Positions 3,309 to 44,477 of a DNA stretch of 64,000 bases are shown here, one piece after another. A program made the translations under genes and the position numbers. Below the pieces are notes generated by a model. That model did no database searches. It was given only the letters and a program-made list of their open reading frames with translations, and was not told the origin of the DNA. How positions within the stretch are numbered: the first letter of the stretch is position 1; each line of letters opens with the position of its first letter. Source of the stretch: Balneolaceae bacterium (lineage in GTDB: Bacteria; Bacteroidota; Rhodothermia; Balneolales; Balneolaceae); the NCBI GenBank assembly GCA_040882525.1, contig JBBEBD010000056.1, positions 7,451 through 71,450 of the forward strand, in the 5' to 3' direction.

Positions 3309-5588
3309 TTATTCATCAGGTAAAGTAAACGCATAGACAGTTCTGCCAATCCCAGGGGATATCGGTGATCGATATCTTCTGCCTCCGCCCCCGGCTACCT
3401 GTACTATATATTGTTTTCCATCTATTTCATATGTAGCCGGTGCCGAGTGTCCGGATGTTTCCATTTTAAAGTTCCATAGCAAATCACCAGTTTTTGCATC
3501 AAAAGCTCTGAACATAGCATCTTCAGTGGCAGCTATAAATACTACACCACCAGATGTTACTGCAGGCCCGCCAAAATTTTCAGCACCTGTATTCTGTTCA
3601 ATTCCCAGACTATCGAGTATTTCATATCGGCCTAACGGCACTTTCCAGGCAATTTCTGCTTTTTCAATATCTACAGCGACCAGCTCACCCCATGGCGGCG
3701 CAATAGCCGGCAAGCCATACTGGTCTGTAAAATGACGGAGCCTGTTTATATACTGAGGTGTTGTTGTCGACCAGGTATGATCGCCACTTCCTCCACTCCA
3801 TGTCGGTTCCCCTTCTCCCTCAACGATTTCAGTAACTTCGGATGATACGGCTTCTTCTCCACTCTGCAGATACTCTACAAGATTATCCAGTTCCTGACCA
3901 GTGATCCCTGCAAAAGCCGGCATGGCTCCCACACCAGAATTAATAATGGATTTTATTTCGTCCTCAGTTTTTTGAAGGTTATCAAGTGCGGGTATACCAT
4001 GATTTCCTTCACGACTCGCACCATGACACTGAGCACAATATGAATTAAAGGTTTGTTTACCTCTGCTAATTGGAGTCAATTCTTCAAATCCATCTGGTTG
4101 AATGGGAACGAGTGTTAAGACAAAAGGAATGTTATTGACATTGATATAATACATATTGTTCTCCGGGTCATAAGCGCCACCTCCCCACTCTGTGGCTCCA
4201 TGGATGCCTGGAACCGTTACCGTTCCCTCAATACTCGGTGGTGTATATGTCGGTCCTGTCCGAAAATTTTTCATTTCATTTTTTACGTATTCAAATGATT
4301 CGGGAGTAATTTGAGTTATATCAGACTCGTACATGGAAGTCCGTACAAGTGGCTCAGGCATCAATGGCCATTTTTGCGTTTCACAGGGCTGCTCACCCGG
4401 AGCACCATCTGTAGGGACGGATTTGTTCACGACCGGAAACAGCGGTTCTCCTGTGTCCCGGTCCAGAATATCCATAGTAGGATGCTTGCCAGTTTGTACA
4501 ACCACATCTCTTTCACTGCCATCTTCGTGAGTTACTGTTGCCAATACCGGTGCTGGTGGAAGATCATAATCCCAAATATCATGGCATAAAACCTGATAGT
4601 GCCAGATACGCTCACCTGTTGTGGCATCCAACGCAAGTACTGAATTTGCAAAAAGATTTTCGCCTTTTCTTGAACCGCCATAGAAAAATTCACCGGCCGC
4701 AGAGCCCGTGGCTGCAAATACCCATCCTCTTTCCTCGTCCACTGAGAGCCCGCCCCAGGGATTGGCTCCGCCATAAATCATACCATCTTCCCATTCCCAG
4801 GTATCATAGCCGTACTGTCCTTCTAAAGGTACGGTATGAAATGTCCACTGGTATTCACCGGTTATCGTATCCCACGCCCTGATATTCCCGGGAGCAATGG
4901 TATTACCTTCGCCTACCTTAGAACCAACGACCAGATAGTTACCATAGGTTACTCCCGGCGTTGTTACTTCTATCTGCCCGTCCAGATCTTCGTAATCCCA
5001 AACATGGTTATATTTTTGATCGATATAACCATTCTCGCCAAATGATTCGATCACTTCACCTGTTTTAGGGTGTACTGCCCAAATCAAATCTCTTGTAAAA
5101 TGGAAAATTCTCTCGTTTTCTCCGTTCTCATCCTCCCAATAGACGACTCCTTTCAGCAACTGACCACTAACCGGATAATCATCTCCATAAACTTCAGCAG
5201 CATTAAAAACCCATATTTCTTCACCTGTAGCAGCATTCAATGCGATAAGGTTCAGGTCATTATCCGCGAAATACATCAGGCCATCTATTACAATTGGATT
5301 GGATTGCATGCCCGGACCACTTAAACTTCTGGCTTCGTAGGTCCATGCCAACTCAAGCTGATCTACATTTTCATTGGTAATCTGATTTAAAGCTGAATAG
5401 TGGGTTGCCGATTTATCACCACGATAGGTAGCCCAATCTGTACTATTATTTAGTCTGTCTATCCAGCCAGTACCACCTCTGTCATGCCCCTCAGATTGGC
5501 AGCCGTAACCAATGGTAACAAACAGAATTGCTATTATATAAAAGTAAAGAGAACCAGGAGATTGAATAAGTTTCATAAAATTTACCAT
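3309..5588 (-). CDS. PQQ-dependent (glucose/quinate-type) dehydrogenase with an internal class I cytochrome c module
   Basis: 759 aa with a lipoprotein-like N-terminus (...TIGYGC). The propeller start is typical of PQQ dehydrogenases (DWATYRGDKSATHYSALNQITNENVDQLELAW). An internal heme-binding module is present (YCAQCHGASREG...GVGAMPAF), followed by further propeller blades (...AFDAKTGDLLWNFKM...). An alternative ATG lies at 5576. Confidence 0.85.
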   Translation of the reverse strand: MVNFMKLIQSPGSLYFYIIAILFVTIGYGCQSEGHDRGGTGWIDRLNNSTDWATYRGDKSATHYSALNQITNENVDQLELAWTYEARSLSGPGMQSNPIVIDGLMYFADNDLNLIALNAATGEEIWVFNAAEVYGDDYPVSGQLLKGVVYWEDENGENERIFHFTRDLIWAVHPKTGEVIESFGENGYIDQKYNHVWDYEDLDGQIEVTTPGVTYGNYLVVGSKVGEGNTIAPGNIRAWDTITGEYQWTFHTVPLEGQYGYDTWEWEDGMIYGGANPWGGLSVDEERGWVFAATGSAAGEFFYGGSRKGENLFANSVLALDATTGERIWHYQVLCHDIWDYDLPPAPVLATVTHEDGSERDVVVQTGKHPTMDILDRDTGEPLFPVVNKSVPTDGAPGEQPCETQKWPLMPEPLVRTSMYESDITQITPESFEYVKNEMKNFRTGPTYTPPSIEGTVTVPGIHGATEWGGGAYDPENNMYYINVNNIPFVLTLVPIQPDGFEELTPISRGKQTFNSYCAQCHGASREGNHGIPALDNLQKTEDEIKSIINSGVGAMPAFAGITGQELDNLVEYLQSGEEAVSSEVTEIVEGEGEPTWSGGSGDHTWSTTTPQYINRLRHFTDQYGLPAIAPPWGELVAVDIEKAEIAWKVPLGRYEILDSLGIEQNTGAENFGGPAVTSGGVVFIAATEDAMFRAFDAKTGDLLWNFKMETSGHSAPATYEIDGKQYIVQVAGGGGRRYRSPISPGIGRTVYAFTLPDE

Positions 5589-34190: not shown

Positions 34191-36116
34191 CTAATCATTC
34201 AGGGAATTAATCCATTCGGCAATTTTTAGAGCCTCTTCTTCGGGAACAAAGGTCATTGGCGGCATTGGTGTAGAATAATCCGGCCAGTTCGAAAGGTCCG
34301 GATTATACATCAGCTCGACCATCTCTTCGTTGGAATAATTTCGTTCAGCTATCTCCGTAAACGCCGGACCCACCTGGCGCTGTTCTGTATTGTGGCAGGA
34401 TGTGCAGGTGTACCGGGTCAGGAGCGGCCTTATGGTTTCGTAGTCGGGTGCTTCTTCATCCGCAGTTCTTTCATCTGCGGTTTCAGACGGAGTATCCCCT
34501 TCATCTCCTTCCGCCGAGTTAAAGGTACTTACATCACTCAAGGCCAGTTTTTCACCGGCGGGTATTTTATTCAGCGTATAGTAGGCGGAACTGTGCAGCA
34601 GCGGCAGGCTTTCGTCCTCCGACCTTATTCCATCCAGCTCTATGTGATGGATATAATTTTTGCGCGTATTTTCGACAACGATCCGTACTTCCAGCCCGTC
34701 ATCGGATACCTGCACTCCGCTGACCTCCGCTGTGCCTAAATCAACCGGCGGACTGCCATAGACCGGATTATACTTATAAATATATGTGGATACAGCGTAT
34801 GAGGCCAGGTCTTCGGCAGATTCGCGGTCAACCGGTTGGGTAAAGGTTACTTTGAAGCCATCAGGCGCAGCACGTACATTCTTCATTTCAAATGGTACCG
34901 GCCCGTTCCACACGAGTCTTTGAAGGCCTTCATCAGCATCTCCGGCTGATCCCCATCCGCGGTTGGTTTCTCCCACGAAAATAGATCCGTCATCGGCCCA
35001 TGCCATCCGCAACACTCCCGACTGAAAGCCACTGCGGAAATCGAAGGCGGCTCCCTGGTACGTTCCATCCACCTTTTCTAAATCGATGCGCATGATTTTA
35101 CTTTGTCCCTGGTCTCCTACCAGTACCTGTCCTTCAAATGGACCGAAATATCCTTCCGGAATTTTCTGTATATCCGAATTTGAGATACCGAGGATTCCAT
35201 GCGGAAGCCACACAGCGGGGGTTTTCAGTTCAGGAAGTGACTCCTGAACGCCAAACATCGTAGTGTAATCCTCCTCATCCCGGATGTCTTCCGGCTTGAT
35301 GTACCTTCCCTCCTCATTTTTCTCTATGCGAGGATCAACATACTCGTAGAACTGTTCAGCCGTAAGATCCAGTGGTGATCCCGGTTCGCCCGTCCACCGC
35401 AGGCCCGCTGGATGCCCGGTAAAATCTCCTTCCTCAACATGCCATATACCGCCGGAACCGATGTAGTCGCCCTGATTTTCTGCATAAAAAAGATCCCCGT
35501 CGATCATACCAAGCCCCGCCGGAGAACGCATTCCCGTGGCCCACGGTGTCATTTCTCCGTCTTCAGTAATCCGCATCATCCATCCTCTCCAGGGTACCCG
35601 GCTTTCTCCGCGCCACCATTCCTCATCGCCAAAGGCAACGTTTCCGGATACAAAAAAGGATCCGTCAGGCGCGATAACCGGTCCAAAACTATATTCGTGA
35701 TAGTGTCCCGACAAAGGCCAGGAATATACTGTTTCCATCAGGTCGGCCCTGCCGTCTGAATTTGTATCCTGAAGGCGGGTCAGTTCACCGCGCTGCGCAC
35801 AATAAAGCGCACCGTCTTTCCAGGCCAACCCCAGTACTTCGTGTAAACCGCTGGCAAACCTCCGGAAATAGGGATTGCTGCTCGTCGGATTCTCAACAAT
35901 AAAGATATCCCCTCTCCGTGTGGCTACAGCTAAGTCACCACCGGGCAACACCGCCAGGCCTCCCACCTCCAGCAGGTAATCCTCAGGACTGACAACATCC
36001 ATAATTTGATAATAATCATCTTCCTGCGGATCATTCTGGGCACCAACCGGTATGCTGATCAAAAGAATAAGGACAGACAGAATATAAAAACGCGTATAAC
36101 GGATAGTCGGGTTCAT
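34191..36116 (-). CDS. secreted beta-propeller (glucose/sorbosone-dehydrogenase-like) protein with C-terminal class I cytochrome c domain
   Basis: 641 aa with a signal peptide. A propeller-type region is present (GGLAVLPGGDLAVATRRGDIFIVEN...GLHEVLGLAWKDGALYCAQRGELTRLQDTNSDGRAD...). The C-terminal heme motif CTSCHNTEQRQVGPAFTEIAERNY...PMPPM is cytochrome c551/c552-like. Confidence 0.8.
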   Translation of the reverse strand: MNPTIRYTRFYILSVLILLISIPVGAQNDPQEDDYYQIMDVVSPEDYLLEVGGLAVLPGGDLAVATRRGDIFIVENPTSSNPYFRRFASGLHEVLGLAWKDGALYCAQRGELTRLQDTNSDGRADLMETVYSWPLSGHYHEYSFGPVIAPDGSFFVSGNVAFGDEEWWRGESRVPWRGWMMRITEDGEMTPWATGMRSPAGLGMIDGDLFYAENQGDYIGSGGIWHVEEGDFTGHPAGLRWTGEPGSPLDLTAEQFYEYVDPRIEKNEEGRYIKPEDIRDEEDYTTMFGVQESLPELKTPAVWLPHGILGISNSDIQKIPEGYFGPFEGQVLVGDQGQSKIMRIDLEKVDGTYQGAAFDFRSGFQSGVLRMAWADDGSIFVGETNRGWGSAGDADEGLQRLVWNGPVPFEMKNVRAAPDGFKVTFTQPVDRESAEDLASYAVSTYIYKYNPVYGSPPVDLGTAEVSGVQVSDDGLEVRIVVENTRKNYIHHIELDGIRSEDESLPLLHSSAYYTLNKIPAGEKLALSDVSTFNSAEGDEGDTPSETADERTADEEAPDYETIRPLLTRYTCTSCHNTEQRQVGPAFTEIAERNYSNEEMVELMYNPDLSNWPDYSTPMPPMTFVPEEEALKIAEWINSLND

Positions 36117-36128
36117 ATAGCCTAATAT

Positions 36129-37949
36129 TTAAAAAAGAATTGTATAGTTTAAAGCAGACTGTACCGGAACCAGAAGCTCCTGGTGGTCCTCCACAGTTCG
36201 AACGACCGGTTCAGAATCAACCGGATCATCCAGCCGGAGATAATAGGAATGATCGTCAATCAGGTATTGGTTGTTTTCATCCTTTTCAATAGTACTTCCC
36301 GTCGCCAGCCGGATGTACAGACCATCGGGTGGATTCTCCACTGTTATGGATCTGCGAAGTCCCTTTCCGTCATCCACCACCCGGATTTCATCGTTGACAA
36401 CTGCCCCGTAAATCTCATATATAAACACCGGTTTATCATTTTGGTCAATCCGGTAACCCCGCGACCTGAAACCCGTACCTGCCGTATCGGCTGCCCAGGA
36501 CGCCTGTCCCTTTTCAAGTTTACTAATGGCCAGTGAGGGTTTTGGAATCAGGTGTTCGACCGTACCTTCCGGCCGGGAGGAACCATCACCCCTGTTGTAC
36601 CACATTGGAGTTGTGTTCAGGAAATCACCCCGCCATACCTGGACCAGGCTGCCATGATTCAGATCGTAGGTATAGTGCAATTTTTCCATACTGCTGATAG
36701 ATACGGCATGGGTAACCCTGCTGCCATCCGGCAGATCCATAAAACTGCGCAGCAGTGGTTTATCAGCCGCTCTGGCGTAGATGGCCCTTCCTCCTCTCCG
36801 GCCCGTAACCCTCTCGTCACTCAGCACGTGTCTGCGAAGCCCCTCACCCGAGACGGCAAATTCCAGGTAAAGACTTCCACCGCGGGACTGCCTGGCATAT
36901 AAAAGCTCGAATGGTATTGCGCCTTCAGGCAGATTTACCGATCCCTCATTATCATCGATATCTACTATCTCATCACCGTCAACCCGCAGCAAAGCGGCCC
37001 CGCCTGCACCATTCAGGCTGAACAGGTAATCCCCCGCAGCGGAGGTATGAATCGTGCCCCGGTAACGAATCAGAAATTGTTCTGGCATAAGCTCCGGAGC
37101 GGATATAAGTCGTTCGGTTTCGCCGGATTTTACAGCCATCAGCGTATCCAGGTCTGGTTCTTCTGAAAAGGCTCCTTCATAAATTTCGTATTCCAGATCT
37201 GACAGCACCGGGACAGGCCAGTCGTAATTCGTAATATTTATGTTTCGAAAAGCTACCGCACCATGATCCCCCTGAATACGCAAAGGCCCCTGTGCCACTT
37301 CATCATCGCCTGCAGCACCCCGGGTCGGCCCGGATAGTTCAACATCTTCGTGTATCGTAACTCCGTTTAATTTCGCACTGATAATTCTGGCATTCTCTGT
37401 TTTATTTCCCGTTTCATCAAATCGGGGGGCCTGGAAAGAAACCTTCAGATTCTGCCATACACCCGGTGCCCGGCTTGCGTTTTGACGGGGAGGATAACCC
37501 TCATACCCTTTTTGGCCTTCCGGGCGGCTTTCATCCCAGCGTTCATAAATACCTCCGTTATCACCGGCTCCCGGTACTTTAACGGCCCAGCTGTCCAGCA
37601 GCTGTATCTCATATCGACCCTGCAGATAAATGCCGGAGTTTGAATCTTTCGCCATCATAAAATCCAGCTCCAGGTCGATATCACCATGTTCAGAAGCGGT
37701 ATACAGATCCTGGCCCCGGTTCTCTCCCGGATGGTTTACCAGTACACCGGTACCATCCCCTGTCCGGAATACATTGGCCTCCTCCAGCGATGCCCTCACC
37801 TCTCCTGCTATTTGCCAGCTCTGCCCGGGATTATCGAAAGCGGACAGGTCAGTCAGTTCTAAGTTCTGAGCCTGAATTCCAAAACTAAACAGAAACAGAA
37901 CAGCAATACTATTTAACGTACAGAACAAAAAATTCTGGAAAGATTTCAT
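36129..37949 (-). CDS. secreted DUF1080 (3-keto-disaccharide-hydrolase-like) + PA14-like domain protein
   Basis: 606 aa with a signal peptide. The N-terminal part is DUF1080-like (DLELDFMMAKDSNSGIYLQGRYEIQLLDSW...GGIYERWD...GPLRIQGDHGAVAFRNINI). A PA14-like region follows (YEIYEGAFSEEPDLDTL...FLIRYRGTIHTSAAGDYLF). Its stop is 13 nt upstream of the propeller/cytochrome c gene. Confidence 0.75.
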   Translation of the reverse strand: MKSFQNFLFCTLNSIAVLFLFSFGIQAQNLELTDLSAFDNPGQSWQIAGEVRASLEEANVFRTGDGTGVLVNHPGENRGQDLYTASEHGDIDLELDFMMAKDSNSGIYLQGRYEIQLLDSWAVKVPGAGDNGGIYERWDESRPEGQKGYEGYPPRQNASRAPGVWQNLKVSFQAPRFDETGNKTENARIISAKLNGVTIHEDVELSGPTRGAAGDDEVAQGPLRIQGDHGAVAFRNINITNYDWPVPVLSDLEYEIYEGAFSEEPDLDTLMAVKSGETERLISAPELMPEQFLIRYRGTIHTSAAGDYLFSLNGAGGAALLRVDGDEIVDIDDNEGSVNLPEGAIPFELLYARQSRGGSLYLEFAVSGEGLRRHVLSDERVTGRRGGRAIYARAADKPLLRSFMDLPDGSRVTHAVSISSMEKLHYTYDLNHGSLVQVWRGDFLNTTPMWYNRGDGSSRPEGTVEHLIPKPSLAISKLEKGQASWAADTAGTGFRSRGYRIDQNDKPVFIYEIYGAVVNDEIRVVDDGKGLRRSITVENPPDGLYIRLATGSTIEKDENNQYLIDDHSYYLRLDDPVDSEPVVRTVEDHQELLVPVQSALNYTILF

Positions 37950-38147
37950 TTATTATCAACCGGTTAAAATTTTAGTTGTACTAATCTATTGCTGGATATT
38001 AAAAAAGGCAATCGATCTTTGCCGGAAAAAGTTGACAGCCGGTTTTCTCAGACTGCTTATGATTTGCACGGATCTATCTTTAATAAATCAGATTATTTGA
38101 TGAAAAAAGTAAACTGCCTGTGCGTCACTTTACGGATTCACTCTCTT

Positions 38148-38303
38148 TTAATCTGTTTCACCATCCGACTCACTTCTTATCTTTCGGAATTCTCTGATCC
38201 CTTCTCCGATTCCACGAGCCAGTCCCGGAAGACGTTTTGCGCCAAATAGTAAAACTATTGCAAAAATAATCAGAACCCATTCAAAACCGCCTAATGCTCC
38301 CAT
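38148..38303 (-). CDS. tatA: twin-arginine translocase subunit TatA/E
   Basis: 51-aa ORF below the track cutoff: MGALGGFEWVLIIFAIVLLFGAKRLPGLARGIGEGIREFRKIRSESDGETD. It has the canonical TatA TM helix, FG hinge and amphipathic helix. AGGAG lies 6 nt upstream of the ATG. Confidence 0.85.
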   Translation of the reverse strand: MGALGGFEWVLIIFAIVLLFGAKRLPGLARGIGEGIREFRKIRSESDGETD

Positions 38304-38340
38304 ACAAACTCCTGTTTAGCTGCTATTTTTATGTTGATTG

Positions 38341-38422
38341 CTTGTAGTGAGTATATGACTTTTCCCGCAAAAGTTCTGCTGCATTCTCGGCTGTTATATC
38401 CCTTGAGGATTTGCAAGCATTT
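38341..38422 (-). pseudogene. orphan duplicate of the last ~80 nt of galT
   Basis: By hand alignment, about 70 of 83 columns are identical to 39758..39840, the true galT 3' end. No upstream galT sequence is attached. Confidence 0.7.
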
Positions 38423-38627
38423 TGTGTCTTTTTGGAGCCAAAAAGCAGCACAGGCAGGCCCAGCCCCTTTTTACACAAGAAGGGACCGTTTTTCGCACTG
38501 ATTTAGAATCGAACTCAGGTTTACAGGTGTATGGCAGATAACGAACCAAAATCTACCTACCATTGAATTCCTTATCGATGTACCGATCACCTGATAGTGC
38601 CAGGTTAAACTAATGAATAAAATTTCT

Positions 38628-39623
38628 CTACGGCTGATATGGGCCTGTTACGACTATTCTGTCCCGGGAATCATCCACTTCAAAAAGATGAGGTATTCGG
38701 ATGTAGCGTCCGTCTATACTTTTATGGCTGTGAACCGACATAAGCAGCTTTCCATCAAACGTTCGGAATAGCATGCCATGCCCGAAGTTTGGTGGAGTGA
38801 TTGGCTCTTCTTGCTGTACCCATGGGCCATCTATTGTACCACTCTCTGAATAAGCCACACCTTGCACATAGTCACTGAAAACCCAGCTTGTCCATAACAT
38901 GCCCAATTTCCCTGTTTGTGTTTCGAACAACCAGGGGCCATCGGTAACTTTGTTTGGGATAATATTTCCATCATCATCCCGCTCCTTACTCCAGGGAGAA
39001 TCAAGCGCCCGAAACAAAATTTTTCCTTCACCCAAAGGTCCTGACAAATCAGGTTTTAATTCAATTTTTTCCATGGTTCCGTTCCAGTTAATCAACCATT
39101 CTTCACAGTAAATCATGTAAGGTTTGCCATCCTTACCTAGCCAAAAAGTACCATCCAAAGTGGGGACGTCCGGTGGCAAATAAACATCGTCTTCCATGGG
39201 TATGTAAGGCCCGTCAGGCTTGTCACTAACCAATACATGACTGGCCCGTCGATTAATAGTATTGCCCTTTACCGTATCGATAACCACATCATTATTGGTG
39301 AATGTAGCAAAGTAATAATACTTGCCCTTGTATTGATGCAATTCAGCAGCCCATATCATTGGCCGGGGCCCCATCCATGATTCAGGATCGGTTTTTGTAA
39401 CCCTGAAAGGCCCCGTCCACGTTCGAAGATTCTTGCTTTTCCAAAGCAAGCCACCCGTTCCGGTCATGTAATAAGTTTTTGTTTTTTCATCCGCAAGAAT
39501 GGCGGGATCGCTGAGCCTGATAGAGTCTAAAGGAACGTCTTCTCTTACTTCGGGTATCTCACGTTGAGCAAAGGCGGTAGAAACATTCAGGATTAATATC
39601 AGTGCGACAAAAAGTATTCTCAT
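38628..39623 (-). CDS. secreted GH43-like five-bladed beta-propeller glycoside hydrolase
   Basis: The track start at 39644 is a TTG. The ATG at 39623 gives a signal peptide (MRILFVALILILNVSTAFAQ). GH43-style motifs are present: LSDPAILADEKTKTYYMTGT, IWAAELHQYKGKYYYFAT, TLDGTFW, VTDGPWLFE. Confidence 0.7.
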   Translation of the reverse strand: MRILFVALILILNVSTAFAQREIPEVREDVPLDSIRLSDPAILADEKTKTYYMTGTGGLLWKSKNLRTWTGPFRVTKTDPESWMGPRPMIWAAELHQYKGKYYYFATFTNNDVVIDTVKGNTINRRASHVLVSDKPDGPYIPMEDDVYLPPDVPTLDGTFWLGKDGKPYMIYCEEWLINWNGTMEKIELKPDLSGPLGEGKILFRALDSPWSKERDDDGNIIPNKVTDGPWLFETQTGKLGMLWTSWVFSDYVQGVAYSESGTIDGPWVQQEEPITPPNFGHGMLFRTFDGKLLMSVHSHKSIDGRYIRIPHLFEVDDSRDRIVVTGPYQP

Positions 39624-39742
39624 GTTATCAAAAGGTATGTTCAAGTGTGAAATCTAACAAAAATCTGGCGGAAAAATTATTCGAAAAGTGATCGCTTTAC
39701 TCCCAAATGTAGTTGAGCTGCCATACAAACTCCCATCAGATA

Positions 39743-40795
39743 CTAACGTCGTGTCAACTTGTAGTGAGTATCTGATTTTTCCCGCAAAAGCTCCGCAGCA
39801 GCCTCCGCAGTGATATCCCGCTGAGGGTTTGCAAGCATTTCATACCCAACACGGAATTTTTTGACTGTCGCTGATCTTAGCAGCGGAGGATAAAAATGCA
39901 TATGAAAATGCCATTCGGGGTGATCCGCACCATCGGTGGGTGATGGATGAAATCCCCCTGAATAGGGAAATGAAATGTGAAAAAGATTATCATATTTCAC
40001 TGTAATTTTTTTGATGATATCGGCCAGAGAAAATTTTTCGTTTTCAGTCATATCTGTAAACCCGCCAAACGGCCGGCGGCTGATGAGAAGCGTTTCAAAC
40101 GGCCAGAAAGCCCAGAATGGAACCAGAATAATAAAATCATCATTTTCCGCTACTATCCTTTCCTTCTCTTTCAGCTCGGTTTCAAGATAATCCCCAAGAA
40201 GAGTTCTGCGATGGGTTTTGAAATATTTTTGCTGCTGTTCCAGTTCTTTTTTCGGCTCTTCAGGTATGGTTTCCTGCGCCCAAATCTGCCCGTGCGGATG
40301 AGGATTACTGCATCCCATAATCTCTCCTTTATTTTCAAAAATCTGTACGTAATTGATAAAGTCCCGGGAACCAAGTTCTTTATACTGATCCGTCCACAGG
40401 TTCACCACGTTAACGATTTGATCTGTACTCATTTCAGGCAGCGTCAGGTTGTGCCGGGGCGAAAAACACACTACCCTGCAGATTCCTTTTTCGGTTTCTG
40501 CTAATAGAAGATCTTCTTTGGAAAAATTTTCTTTTTCAGTTTCGGGGAGTAGTGCACTGAAATCATTATCAAATACAAATGTGGATGTATACTCCGGATT
40601 CCGGGCTCCGCCTGTTCGTTTATTTCCGGGACAGAGATAACAATTTTCATCATATTCCGGCTTTTGAATGACAGATTGCTCTTCCAGTTGTCCCTGCCAC
40701 GGCCTTTTATTCCGGTGAGCAGAAACCTGAACCCATTCACCCGTTAACTTGTTCAGGCGCCGGTGTGGCTTATTATTGAATAATATATTCATCAT
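39743..40795 (-). CDS. galT: galactose-1-phosphate uridylyltransferase
   Basis: [26 protein letters not shown] aligns with the E. coli GalT N-terminus. The Zn-site CYLCPGN and the HPH active site ([12 protein letters not shown]) are present. The ATG at 40795 (MMNILFNNK...) fits better than the track start at 40858. Confidence 0.9.
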
Positions 40796-40884
40796 TTTCT
40801 TTGTAAAAAAGACTCCATTGGAGAACCATAGCCTTAACGGCGAAGGTATAATGTACATAACCTTGCGTGCTATTTGAAATCACC

Positions 40885-41111
40885 CACTCCGGAGGAGTGA
40901 TATGTTTGTAATACATGAACAAGGACATCACCATCTCCCAGAGGCGATCTTTGCGAAAGAGCTTTTGATATATACGAGAGGGAATCCAACAGCCCATACA
41001 AAACCTGGTGCAAAAACCCCCGTTCCTGTTCTGAGGTTTTAACAAGTTCCGGATTGGGGGTTTGGGTATTACCATTTCATTATTTTACAAACATACGGCT
41101 CCGCCGGAGCC
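40885..41111. mobile_element. MITE-like element, copy 1 (about 227 bp, hairpin-containing terminal inverted repeats)
   Basis: The left end is CACTCCGGAGGAGTGATATGTTTGTAAT. The reverse complement of the right end is GGCTCCGGCGGAGCCGTATGTTTGTAAA. No ORF of its own is credible. Confidence 0.5.
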
Positions 41112-41176
41112 GGTAAAAATATAGCCTTAAACCAACAGATCGAGAAAGGCCAAAAATTCTTGTCTTCAAAAAAAAC

Positions 41177-41387
41177 CACTCCGGAGGAGTGGTATGTTTG
41201 TAGATATATGAACAAGGATATTACCATCTTCCCGAGACGATCGTTACGAAAGAGCTTTTGATTTATACGAGGAGGAAGCCAACAGCCCATACAAAACCCG
41301 GTACAAAAATCCCTGGATTATTTCCTGATTTTACCTGCATCTGAACCATTTTCTCATTTCTATAACCATAAGGCTCCCCCCGGAGCC
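41177..41387. mobile_element. MITE-like element, copy 2 (about 211 bp, more decayed right end)
   Basis: It is a direct repeat of copy 1 at a 292-bp offset. The left 140 bp is roughly 85% identical by eye. The right end is GGCTCCCCCCGGAGCC. Confidence 0.5.
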
Positions 41388-41427
41388 GATAATTTGAACC
41401 TGCAAACATTTCTCCTGAACATTGATA

Positions 41428-42588
41428 TTAACTTATAACCCCGGCCCCGTCACTGATCCGCGCCTGGTAAAACTCAACCGGCGGCCGGGCGTTTCCATTA
41501 TACCTGGTTTTGATGATATCCATCACACCTTCCACTTCATTTTCCAGAACCAGGTTAATGGTACAGCCGCCAAAACCTCCTCCCATCATACGCGAACCCA
41601 ATACAGCATCCAGATTTTCCGTTGCCTCCACCAGCAGATCCAGCTCGCGGCAGCTTACTTCATATTCATCTCTCAGTCCGTAATGAGACCGGTACATCCG
41701 GCGGCCGAATGATTGAATATTCCCTTTCGAAAGGTCATTACATGCTTCCAAAACCCGCCGGTTCTCATCCAGCACATACCGGCACCGTTTATAGACTACA
41801 TCAGACAATTCACTTTTATGCTCTTCCAGGAGCTGATAAGATACATCCCGCAGGCTGTTCAGTGAATCATCAAACTTACGCAAAACAGAAACCCCTTCTT
41901 CACACTGCCTGCGCCGGATATTATATTCTGATCCGGCCAGTTCACGCCGGACGTTTGTATCGCAAAGCAGAATTGCAAGATCACTGCGATCAAAAGAATG
42001 ATGTGAATATTCCAGGGACCGGCAATCCAGTTTGATTACACTTCCGGCTTTTCCGTGAAGGTTGGCAAACTGATCCATAATACCACATTGTACCCCCACA
42101 AATTCGTTCTCCGCCTGCTGCCCGATTTTTGCCATTTCTGCCCGGGACAGGTTCAGTTCAAACAATTCAGACAAACCCAGCAGTACACCCCCTTCCAGAG
42201 CGGCTGAGGAAGAAAGTCCGGCTCCGATTGGAATATCTCCTCCAAATAAACAGTCAAATCCTCCGATCTCAAATCCCCGCTTTTGGAGCTGATCTGTAAC
42301 ACCCATGATATAGTCAGGCCAATTCCCTGTTTTTTGAAACTCACCCGTCAAATCCGTTTCAAATTCCGATTGATCCATATCCCTGGCAACCAGACGAATC
42401 CTTCTGAGTTTATTAGGAGCTAATGCTAAAACAATCTTCTTATCGATGGCAGCAGGCAGTACAAAGCCATCATTATAATCCGTATGCTCTCCAATCAAGT
42501 TAACACGGGCTGGTGATTCTACTACGACCGGTGCAGATTCGAACCGATTCCGGAACTCAGGCAATATATTGTTGGAGTTTAAAGTCAC
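41428..42588 (-). CDS. galK: galactokinase
   Basis: The GalK signature RVNLIGEHTDYNDGFVLP and the GHMP ATP-binding loop PIGAGLSSSAALEG are present. The start is GTG at 42586-42588, and the N-terminal length matches E. coli GalK. Confidence 0.92.
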   Translation of the reverse strand: MTLNSNNILPEFRNRFESAPVVVESPARVNLIGEHTDYNDGFVLPAAIDKKIVLALAPNKLRRIRLVARDMDQSEFETDLTGEFQKTGNWPDYIMGVTDQLQKRGFEIGGFDCLFGGDIPIGAGLSSSAALEGGVLLGLSELFELNLSRAEMAKIGQQAENEFVGVQCGIMDQFANLHGKAGSVIKLDCRSLEYSHHSFDRSDLAILLCDTNVRRELAGSEYNIRRRQCEEGVSVLRKFDDSLNSLRDVSYQLLEEHKSELSDVVYKRCRYVLDENRRVLEACNDLSKGNIQSFGRRMYRSHYGLRDEYEVSCRELDLLVEATENLDAVLGSRMMGGGFGGCTINLVLENEVEGVMDIIKTRYNGNARPPVEFYQARISDGAGVIS

Positions 42589-42630
42589 TGCTTATTCTAT
42601 AAATTTGAGGTGGTTCTGGCGATTGTTGGG

Positions 42631-44250
42631 TCAGGCTTCAAAAAGAATGGAAAAATCCGCAAAGTAAGCATAAATCATCAGTACGATAATGACCAAAAAC
42701 ACACTGGCGTGCATAGAATATTTCCATGGTGTCATATCCACATCTTTGGTATACTCTTGCTCCCATGCATCATCCAGTGGCTTGAAATAACCGAAACCCA
42801 TCATTAAGCCGACCAACAGAACAAAGGATAGCCCAAGGAAATGAAATTCGGTGATTTGAGCTACCCACCCGTTAAACGGTGGAACAAAATATCCTGTGGC
42901 AATAGAGAGGCAGCCAGCTACAAGAGCCCATTTTGCAGCGACGGGTGGTATTTTCGGGCCTATCAACCCTACAAGAACTACAGCCAGAATGGGAATAAAA
43001 TAAATGCCGTTCATCTGCTGCAGGTATTGAAATATACTTTCCTGGCCGATAAGCAGCGGCGCAATAATCATGGAAGCAAACGCCACAATCCAGCCAAATC
43101 CCTTTCCTGCTTTTACAATCTGATCATCAGTAGCATCCTTATTCCAGACAGCTTTATAAAAGCCATATCCAAAAAGTGTAGAACTTGCGTTGAGGGCAGA
43201 GTTAAACGAGCTTAGAATCGCTCCAACCATTACACCCGCAAATAACCCTGTCATGGGTGACGGCAATACATCCCGAACGAGCACCCCATAGGCACTGTCT
43301 GCTTCAATTCCAGTGTCCGCATAAAGGTAAAATGCAATAATACCGGGAAGCACAAGATACATCGGCCCCATCAGTTTCAGCAATCCGGTCAGAAGTACGC
43401 CCTTCTGGCCCTCTTCAAGGCTGCTGGCTCCAAACGTTCGCTGGATAATCTGCTGATTGGTGCACCAGTAAAAAACATTTAACAGTAATACGCCTGTAAA
43501 CAGCGTTGAAAAAGGAACCTGTTGATCCGGGCCGCCAATGGAGTTAAACCGCTCCGGGTTCGCTTCGTTCAGGGTTTGCCATCCCTCAAGTAAACCTTCA
43601 CCCCCGCTTACAGCCTGTAAGCCGAAATAGGTAATGGCCAGGCCGCCAATTAATAATCCAATTCCATTGAGCAGATCAGATACAGCGATGGAGCTGAGTC
43701 CGCCAAAAAGGGCGTAACTGGCTCCGATAATGCCGACTACCCAAACAGTAAGCCAGATAACTCCCGCATACGATTCAATTCCCGTTAATAACTGGATATC
43801 GAGCATCCCCACAAGTGCCGTCGCTCCTGTGTACAAAATGATAGGCAATAAAATAGCTACATAAGCTGCAAGAAAAATCAGGTTCGAAATTACCTGAGTA
43901 CCATGATCAAATCGAATTCCGAGAAATTGGGGTACTGTAGCAATTCCGCTTTTCAAAAACCGCGGCAGAAAATAAAGAGCCATTAATACAAGAGCCAAAA
44001 CGGCGAGCACTTCCCAGGCCATCACACTCAAACCATCAATAAAGGCAGACCCGTTTAAGCCCACCATCTGCTCTGTTGACAGATTTGTTAACAACAAAGA
44101 GCCGGCAATAAATGGGAAACTAAGTCTCCTGCCCGCAAGATAATACCCGTCAAGGCTGGAAATATCCTGCTCGCGTACCCACCACCAGGTGAAAACGGCC
44201 ACAAAAGTGATAAAAAACAGGAAACTGCTAATTATAATGAAATTCTCCAT
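42631..44250 (-). CDS. sodium:solute symporter (SSF/SGLT family), probable sugar (galactose/glucose) transporter
   Basis: 539 aa with about 13-14 TM segments. It has an SSF N-terminal pattern (YYLAGRRLSFPFIAGSLLLTNLSTEQMVGLNGSAF). It lies 42 nt upstream of galK. Confidence 0.88.
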   Translation of the reverse strand: MENFIIISSFLFFITFVAVFTWWWVREQDISSLDGYYLAGRRLSFPFIAGSLLLTNLSTEQMVGLNGSAFIDGLSVMAWEVLAVLALVLMALYFLPRFLKSGIATVPQFLGIRFDHGTQVISNLIFLAAYVAILLPIILYTGATALVGMLDIQLLTGIESYAGVIWLTVWVVGIIGASYALFGGLSSIAVSDLLNGIGLLIGGLAITYFGLQAVSGGEGLLEGWQTLNEANPERFNSIGGPDQQVPFSTLFTGVLLLNVFYWCTNQQIIQRTFGASSLEEGQKGVLLTGLLKLMGPMYLVLPGIIAFYLYADTGIEADSAYGVLVRDVLPSPMTGLFAGVMVGAILSSFNSALNASSTLFGYGFYKAVWNKDATDDQIVKAGKGFGWIVAFASMIIAPLLIGQESIFQYLQQMNGIYFIPILAVVLVGLIGPKIPPVAAKWALVAGCLSIATGYFVPPFNGWVAQITEFHFLGLSFVLLVGLMMGFGYFKPLDDAWEQEYTKDVDMTPWKYSMHASVFLVIIVLMIYAYFADFSILFEA

Positions 44251-44477
44251 GTTGTAATCGAATAAAGAATGTAGCTGAGTTTAATTCAGTTTTGGTTCAT
44301 TACAGCCAGGATTATCATCTGTTTAACCTAAAAGCAGGCAACCTCTTCCTGGTCACGATCAAAATCAGGAATGTTGTTACCTTCAGTTAAATGATAATAT
44401 CAGGCGTAGATAGGTTCATGTATTTTTATCTGATTGTAAATAGGTAATCAGCTCTTAAAAAAAGCAGCTACTGCAAA

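Follow-up and report, generated by a model that had tools for sequence, protein, structure and literature searches.

A GH43 gene between two diverged copies of the galT-tatA junction of a Balneolaceae bacterium: a possible scar of recombination between lineages

How did a gene for a glycoside hydrolase of family 43 (GH43) come to lie between galT and tatA in a Balneolaceae bacterium, with a piece of the galT-tatA junction on each side of it? The locus belongs to a 64,000-nt stretch of DNA, called here the window, to which all coordinates refer, and the genes of the region are all on the minus strand. In an earlier inspection, the sequence-only reading, the arrangement was noticed and explained by integration of a circular DNA through a single, Campbell-type crossover. 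Our own answer, given tentatively, is that the structure is perhaps a scar of recombination between lineages: incoming gal-GH43 DNA may have displaced the resident galT, and the whole module was later passed on by homologous exchange. The parts of the locus are as follows, the gene identities of galT, GH43 and tatA having been taken from a Pfam profile search.

39743-40795, minus strand: intact galT, encoding a galactose-1-phosphate uridylyltransferase of 350 amino acids (aa) (PF01087, E 3.6e-66; PF02744, E 4.1e-60)
39717-39841, minus strand: junction copy J1, consisting of the 3'-terminal ~83 nt of the intact galT (39758-39840), a 24-nt spacer with the stop codon, and a tatA-type Shine-Dalgarno sequence (SD) plus ATGGCAGC (39717-39733)
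39677-39724, minus strand: dead tatA start, a 15-codon open reading frame (ORF) read from the sequence as MAAQLHLGVKRSLFE and a stop
38423-39716, minus strand: inserted segment X, 1,294 nt
38628-39623, minus strand: gene for a predicted GH43 glycoside hydrolase, 331 aa, arabinanase-like (PF04616, 91.3 bits)
38296-38422, minus strand: junction copy J2, consisting of an orphan, frameshifted galT tail (38341-38422), a 28-nt spacer, and SD plus ATGGGAGC, which starts the real tatA
38148-38303, minus strand: intact tatA, 51 aa (PF02416, E 1.9e-14)

Alignment of 38250-38520 against 39660-39930 by BLASTN returned two significant blocks: in the first, 38341-38422 aligns with 39758-39840 over 83 columns that contain 70 identities and one gap (E=4e-20); in the second, 38296-38312 agrees with 39717-39733 at 16 of 17 positions (E=5e-4). 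Both blocks are colinear, on the same strand and in the same order, that is, they form a direct repeat, and a repeat search returned identical pairs. A local alignment spanning the two blocks scored 102, as against a mean of 17.3 (standard deviation 2.2) and a maximum of 28 in 500 shuffles. The copies bracket 1,294 nt, and the sole gene in this segment is the GH43 gene. J1 is the true end of galT, after which the tatA-type SD and ATG open merely the 15-codon ORF; J2 translates as MLANPQ, a 1-nt deletion and then 24 more residues, and runs into the intact tatA. Both galT and tatA of the window are full length, each with Pfam matches. The sequence-only reading had described this layout, with the intact galT and the dead tatA start at the right, the orphan galT tail and the intact tatA at the left and only a GH43-like gene in between, and its repeat blocks proved to be accurate to the base. 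It had also taken the repeats for gene fragments rather than regulatory elements, and the similarity does track the codon structure of galT; we likewise read them as gene fragments, not regulatory motifs. The same architecture recurs in two independent metagenome-assembled genomes (MAGs) and among the Logan contigs from four sediment runs; therefore, the arrangement is not an assembly artefact.

Past nt 8, the similarity of the J1 stub to tatA is no better than that of shuffled sequences (local alignment, P=0.5). The candidate that the stub goes on as a degenerate tatA, in which LHLGVKR would resemble the TatA motif FGAKRLP, was ruled out by the same shuffle test. A 13-nt inverted repeat (39735-39776; 12 of 13 positions complementary, 16-nt loop) lies across the galT stop in J1 and has no counterpart in J2.

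A native junction of the two genes was found in the sediment runs that contain the window sequence (X1 to X4), which were searched as Logan contigs only. In run X1, a 321-nt contig with a depth of 5.5 has galT directly followed by tatA; we call its source lineage E, which also occurs in run X4 at about 3x. The contig is composed of 38275-38312, where the SD-ATG spacer carries two substitutions, 32 unique letters, and 39758-40008, where the galT tail of E shows 36 differences from the window over 251 nt. In gene orientation it reads ...TACAAG CAA ATC AAT CAA AAA TAA ATTAGTATCTAATT GGAGTATTTATGGGAGC..., with the tatA SD 14 nt past galT. Since every 31-mer across this junction contains E-specific bases, the adjacency is real at the depth of 5.5. 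The spacer of E has CAA.TCAA..AAAATA in common with J2 and TTAGTATCTnAT in common with J1, and therefore both J1 and J2 descend from authentic native junctions. We concluded that galT-tatA adjacency, with the SD and ATG of tatA ~14-25 nt past galT, is the ancestral state specific to this clade. The candidate that E is an excision product of the window lineage was ruled out, the galT of E being ~14% diverged.

The adjacency was seen only in the sediment reads of this clade. No empty site was present among 25 Balneolaceae galT loci, among 80 loci around homologues of the 606-aa gene downstream, or at the next-closest galT contigs, P0241 and P0002 to P0005, the latter with 77-82% aa identity and with galT followed by an SDR gene, a PQQ dehydrogenase gene or a gene for a small 3-keto-disaccharide hydrolase; nor did two degenerate junction patterns, each scanned in genome and metagenome contig collections, reveal one. 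Thus the ancestral arrangement postulated by the sequence-only reading does exist, in lineage E of run X1, and none was seen among the public genome and metagenome loci that were searched.

Lineage E also separates the two copies from each other. Within the first 62 nt, J1 and J2 are distinguished by 10 sites, and of these E has the base of J2 at 7 and that of J1 at 2. J2 differs from E at 5 of 83 positions (~6%) and J1 plus the galT body at 36 of 251 (~14%), a contrast based on few sites (Fisher P=0.053). The orphan tail therefore looks like a remnant of an E-like resident galT, and the intact galT with J1 looks as if it came from a different lineage, D.

The differences between the copies have the character of divergence between lineages. 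Over 27 alignable codons, J1 and J2 show 7 synonymous and 3 non-synonymous differences; the proportions of different synonymous and non-synonymous sites (pS and pN) are 0.38 and 0.05, respectively, with a ratio of 0.13. The binomial P value of this pattern is 0.002 if both copies were neutral and 0.035 for an in-situ duplication with one copy neutral, so that even the orphan 83-nt tail bears a signature of purifying selection. In the sister lineage R, represented by the MAG contigs L081 and L082 (99.97% identical to each other), the gene order is the same as in the window lineage W, namely SSS-galK-galT-GH43-tail-tatA, and the tail is an unbroken 30-codon ORF in L081. The pS of 0.38 between J1 and J2 equals the backbone divergence between W and R (0.378 in tatA, 0.27 in the 606-aa gene). 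Because the differences are biased to synonymous sites, pS equals that of the backbone and J2 is closer to E than to J1, the repeat copies are homeologous and not a fresh in-situ duplication.

The protein encoded in X matches PF04616 with 91.3 bits, as against a curated cut-off of 32.2, and its nearest solved structure is the endo-arabinase PDB 5c0p (E 2.5e-48); it is thus predicted to be an arabinanase-like hydrolase. Its N-terminus is signal-peptide-like, as judged by eye from the sequence and not by a predictor. The closest homologues, from Rhodohalobacter sp. SW132 and metagenomes, are 87-89% identical in aa and sit in unrelated contexts, beside a PETase-like gene, a DUF2256 gene or a methyltransferase gene. 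At the DNA level, identity to the GH43 loci L174 and L175 is 88.5% over 39645-38591, and a MAFFT alignment extends the homology with L174, L175 and L176 from ~25 nt 5' of the ATG to ~75 nt past the stop codon. As DNA homology to unrelated loci extends beyond the coding sequence, GH43 came in together with short native flanks. X is thus made up, in gene order, of 71 nt, the native 5' flank of GH43 (~25 nt), the coding sequence, its native 3' flank (75 nt or more) and a further ~125 nt; the 71-nt and ~125-nt ends matched nothing else in the window and none of 177 fetched loci. The gene is single-copy: no second copy was found in the window, nor was one indicated by depth in the contigs of the sediment runs.

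The GH43 protein still reaches 77-79% identity with proteins from Draconibacterium, Ignavibacteria and KSB1; in Rhodohalobacter, where GH43 reaches 87-89%, galT is only ~75% identical. This conservation across phyla suggests either very slow evolution or frequent transfer.

To place the locus in its wider setting, the following features are needed.

42631-44250, minus strand: SSS-family transporter gene
41428-42588, minus strand: galK
38290-44257, minus strand: exchanged module SSS-galK-galT-J1-GH43-J2, 98.8% identical to the sister lineage, with flanks 89-91% identical
38423-38625, minus strand: 203-nt stretch with AAAT at both ends, present in the window lineage and deleted in the sister lineage
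38471-38520, no strand assigned: 50-nt piece with 2-3x extra depth, recurring elsewhere in these genomes
38007-38023, minus strand: terminator-like hairpin with a T-run 3' of tatA (consensus scan only)
36129-37949, minus strand: gene for a 606-aa protein with a 3-keto-disaccharide-hydrolase domain

Compared with R, the window is a mosaic of identity. It is 98.8% identical over 44257-38622, remains highly identical through J2, falls to ~89% from 38289 onward and is ~91% identical upstream of the module; the galT of the window is 99% identical to that of the sister MAGs (P0001). Within J2 there are just three substitutions and one indel, all in the tail, and no difference at all at 38290-38356. 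The switch of identity is located in the first codons of tatA, a gene whose protein is 100% and whose DNA is 90% identical between the window and L081. The pS values follow the same division, with 0.001 for galT, 0.011 for galK, 0.021 for SSS and 0.074 for GH43 inside the module, and 0.378 for tatA and 0.27 for the 606-aa gene outside it. Because the module is 98.8% identical and its flanks only 89-91%, the whole 6-kb module, orphan tail included, has recently been exchanged by homologous recombination between lineages ~11% diverged. A variant in run X1 (R', 24.5x) has an R-type tatA and window-type bases at 38286 and 38289, which places a second breakpoint between 38247 and 38286. The breakpoints of R and R' together show that crossovers are concentrated in the initial ~50 nt of tatA.

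Lineage R is without the 203 nt at 38423-38625, which have AAAT at either side, and they are also missing in the R-type contigs of runs X2-X4; the orphan tail of R consequently begins 3 nt past the GH43 stop codon. The first ~75 nt of the stretch are the native GH43 3' flank common to L174, L175 and L176, and because of this the difference is a deletion in R and not an insertion in W. The candidate that a tRNA fragment, an attachment (att) site or a miniature inverted-repeat transposable element had been inserted in W was rejected, as ARAGORN found no tRNA and Rfam no match, and the first ~75 nt are native GH43 flank.

Some further features of the module and of the 203-nt stretch may be recorded here. 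GH43 is about four times more diverged between W and R than the gal genes (pS 0.074 versus 0.001-0.021; 39318-39717 compared with L081), which hints at nested recombination tracts of differing age with a boundary near J1. In galT (39743-40795, compared with L081 3711-4763) there are ~7 non-synonymous and ~0 synonymous differences (pN 0.008, pS 0.001), whereas SSS and galK show the usual synonymous excess; relaxed selection, positive selection or noise in the MAG consensus are possible causes. The left edge of the module (44258-44427) is an indel-rich intergenic region upstream of SSS, ~102 nt longer in the window than in L081, in which no remnants of displaced genes were found. The G+C content is 42-48% in the module, 50-54% downstream and 37-46% upstream, and base composition is not diagnostic. 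The 50-nt piece at 38471-38520, which stands at 2-3x the local depth, is found again, with 5 differences, within a 16.9-kb contig of sister-lineage depth and is therefore repeated elsewhere in these genomes; a hairpin (38465-38484) lies beside it, and the piece is neither a tRNA (ARAGORN) nor a known RNA (Rfam).

The reading that we tentatively prefer for these observations is an inter-lineage recombination scar, whose founding event we infer as follows. DNA of lineage D would have recombined into a chromosome with the native galT-tatA order, bringing in galT, D's own galT-tatA junction cut after nt 8 of tatA, and a ~1.3-kb piece with GH43 and its native flanks. At the upstream end it would have been joined by homologous recombination in or beyond the gal genes, and at the downstream end by an illegitimate joint inside the resident galT, 83 nt before the stop codon. 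The resident galT would have been lost save for these last 83 nt, which would persist together with the resident spacer, SD and tatA as J2, the incoming junction being J1. By this course, tatA would have retained its own translation signals, nothing essential would have been broken, and GH43 would have become the last gene of the SSS-galK-galT cluster. Later, as the comparison with R shows, the 6-kb module moved between co-occurring lineages by homologous recombination, with the right-hand crossovers in the conserved first ~50 nt of tatA, and one lineage lost 203 nt downstream of GH43 through a deletion at the AAAT microhomology. No recombinase or mobile element is involved. Displacement of this kind would explain why the galT body groups with J1, why the module acts as a unit and why tatA keeps its own SD. 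The intergenic region upstream of SSS marks the left edge of the recent exchange; no left crossover of the founding event can be seen.

Several points weigh against the displacement of a resident galT. Lineage D, which should show J1 followed by a full tatA, or at least the joint between tatA nt 8 and X, was not found in runs X1-X4 or in the pattern scans. This joint must have pre-existed in the donor, and that its origin is left unexplained is a weak point. The contrast between the lineages of J1 and J2 comes from few sites (P about 0.05) and from one low-depth contig, reconstructed from difference tables. The SD-ATG block is alike in J1 and J2 (16/17), and E differs from it at 2 sites; the identity could reflect gene conversion or crossing over within the junction, such as a Campbell event would bring about. 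Lastly, of a possible microhomology at the joint of X and J2, AAAT is all that is visible.

The Campbell-type integration advanced by the sequence-only reading is the strongest of the other explanations, and we consider it possible, albeit unlikely. It holds that a circle with one homeologous 125-bp galT-tatA junction plus GH43 entered the native junction by a single crossover and thereby duplicated it, the crossover lying either in the 28 identical nt with which the junction begins on the left or in the 13 identical nt at the SD. The locus has exactly the A-J-X-J-C topology of such a product, with both flanking genes intact, and no loss of function would be needed at any step. The insert lies between two direct copies of a segment that is single in the empty site of lineage E, no recombinase gene is present, and in L081 both copies have the identical 28-nt run at the left end, AAATGCTTGCAAACCCTCAGCGGGATAT; the near-identity of the SD-ATG blocks, despite the differences in E, is compatible with a crossover inside the junction, which is a small point. 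Campbell integration predicts, however, that the galT body and J2 belong to the same lineage, whereas J2 is 6% from E and the body with J1 14% (P about 0.05, few sites). To form a circle with the junction and X, two prior illegitimate joints would be required, because both boundaries between the junction copies and X fall inside ORFs. No circle or excision joints were present in the contigs of the four runs, which drop rare variants, and the recent spread moved the whole 6-kb module, not the junction and X alone. From the sequence-only reading, the topology, the empty site and the freedom from recombinases stand, and the single crossover of a circle is not specifically supported; displacement of a resident galT, with one homologous and one illegitimate end, fits at least as well.

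We regard as doubtful an in-situ event within one genome, such as template switching or duplication followed by deletion, by which GH43 would have been copied from elsewhere and 125 bp of the target doubled, or a long target-site duplication at a staggered break, after which the two copies would have diverged. Insertions flanked by target-sequence duplications are a known product of template-switch repair, and no donor lineage was found, both of which speak for such an event. Against it, the synonymous bias would be unlikely if the orphan copy had been neutral from the start (P=0.035), and J1 and J2 are as far apart (pS 0.38) as the backbones of the two lineages, yet the J2 copies of W and R are nearly the same. 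Moreover, J2 resembles lineage E more closely than it does J1, and neither the window nor the depth of the contigs gives a second GH43 gene. Quite improbable, in our judgement, is a recombinase-free, homology-driven cassette, in which a circle of the junction plus GH43 would loop out through recombination between J1 and J2, be taken up, and re-integrate by single crossover into co-occurring lineages with the native junction; if it were true, a conserved gene junction would serve as a portable attachment site common to the population. A reading of the repeats as conserved elements of regulation or structure, as a product of chance or as the result of a chimeric assembly is effectively excluded, for although J2 does hold the SD of tatA and possibly its promoter, the similarity follows galT codons and the window copy is frameshifted, the alignment score lies far above the shuffle maximum, no Rfam family matches, and the architecture recurs in two MAGs and four runs.

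Two neighbouring features deserve mention in their own right. First, ~28.7 kb of the window (5469-34190) are absent from the sister lineage, L081 going from the homologue of a 641-aa gene (34191-36116) almost straight to the PQQ dehydrogenase gene (window 3581-5468). These additional ~28.7 kb resemble a polysaccharide utilization locus, with a SusC/SusD pair, a FecR anti-sigma factor, two FG-GAP/ASPIC proteins, a ThuA-3-keto-disaccharide hydrolase, an amidohydrolase and an RCC1-repeat protein, and no integrase was present among the ten ORFs scanned. Second, the unusually long galK-galT spacer contains two direct copies of a ~140-nt element (40877-41020 and 41169-41313), 86-88% identical and 292-293 nt apart. 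Each opens with the perfect hairpin CACTCCGGAGGAGTG, after which comes TATGTTTGT, and they are conserved in L081; the element has no Rfam match and no further copies in the window.

Taken as a whole, the locus offers a clean and datable case in which an accessory glycoside hydrolase joins the sugar-utilisation cluster of a salt-lake bacterium without mobile-element genes. The remnants of both parental junctions, the empty site and the ongoing exchange of the module are visible in one sediment community, where the gal-GH43 module passes between lineages that have diverged by ~11% and the conserved 5' end of tatA is the place of the crossovers. For annotation, the case calls for caution: the 15-codon stub of tatA and the ORFs of 49 and 51 aa that overlie the orphan tail are relics and not genes.

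Among known systems, integrase-borne islands resemble the locus in that an accessory gene lies between direct repeats at a junction of conserved genes and the empty site occurs in a relative. The 12-kb neighbourhood of the GH43 locus encodes an Alk_phosphatase, SSF, GalK, GalT, GH43, TatA, 3keto-disac_hyd, one unknown protein and PQQ; no integrase, recombinase, insertion sequence or transposase was found in it, in keeping with the sequence-only reading, and ARAGORN found no tRNA in the window. Unlike the att repeats of such islands, the repeats here are gene fragments of 125 bp that have drifted apart, with 84% identity over 83 nt and without a short identical att core, and there is no tRNA target. 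As to transposons, the duplication is 125 bp long and diverged, and the ends of X have no inverted repeats. We concluded that the structure is neither an integrase-borne island nor a transposon. With Campbell integration, known from suicide plasmids and episomes, the locus shares a duplicated segment flanking the insert, intact neighbours and independence from a site-specific recombinase; it differs in that its copies have diverged by 16%, the galT body tends, on few sites, to depart from the distal copy in lineage signal, and no circle was detected in the contigs.

In-situ displacement of operon genes by xenologous or orthologous copies was reportedly described by Omelchenko et al. in Genome Biology in 2003. 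In orthologous displacement, as apparently here, a resident operon gene is swapped for a homeologous copy and the operon context is kept; what sets the present locus apart is that a remnant of the displaced gene and one of the donor's downstream gene both survive as a direct repeat, and that a cargo gene has been added. The likeness extends to homology-facilitated illegitimate recombination as defined in PMC3240628. In both, on the reading preferred here, foreign DNA, in this case that of GH43, enters beside a homologous anchor (here the gal genes), the far joint lies in a resident ORF, no recombinase takes part, and the resident DNA between anchor and joint is replaced, leaving a truncated remnant, here the orphan galT tail. 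The two differ in that the anchor and the microhomology of the founding joint would have to be deduced here rather than observed, and in that the incoming DNA would already have had a truncated tatA start, which homology-facilitated illegitimate recombination alone leaves unexplained. The event is thus of a known kind and reveals no new mechanism, and it may serve as a worked case of recombination-mediated operon remodelling in environmental Balneolaceae.

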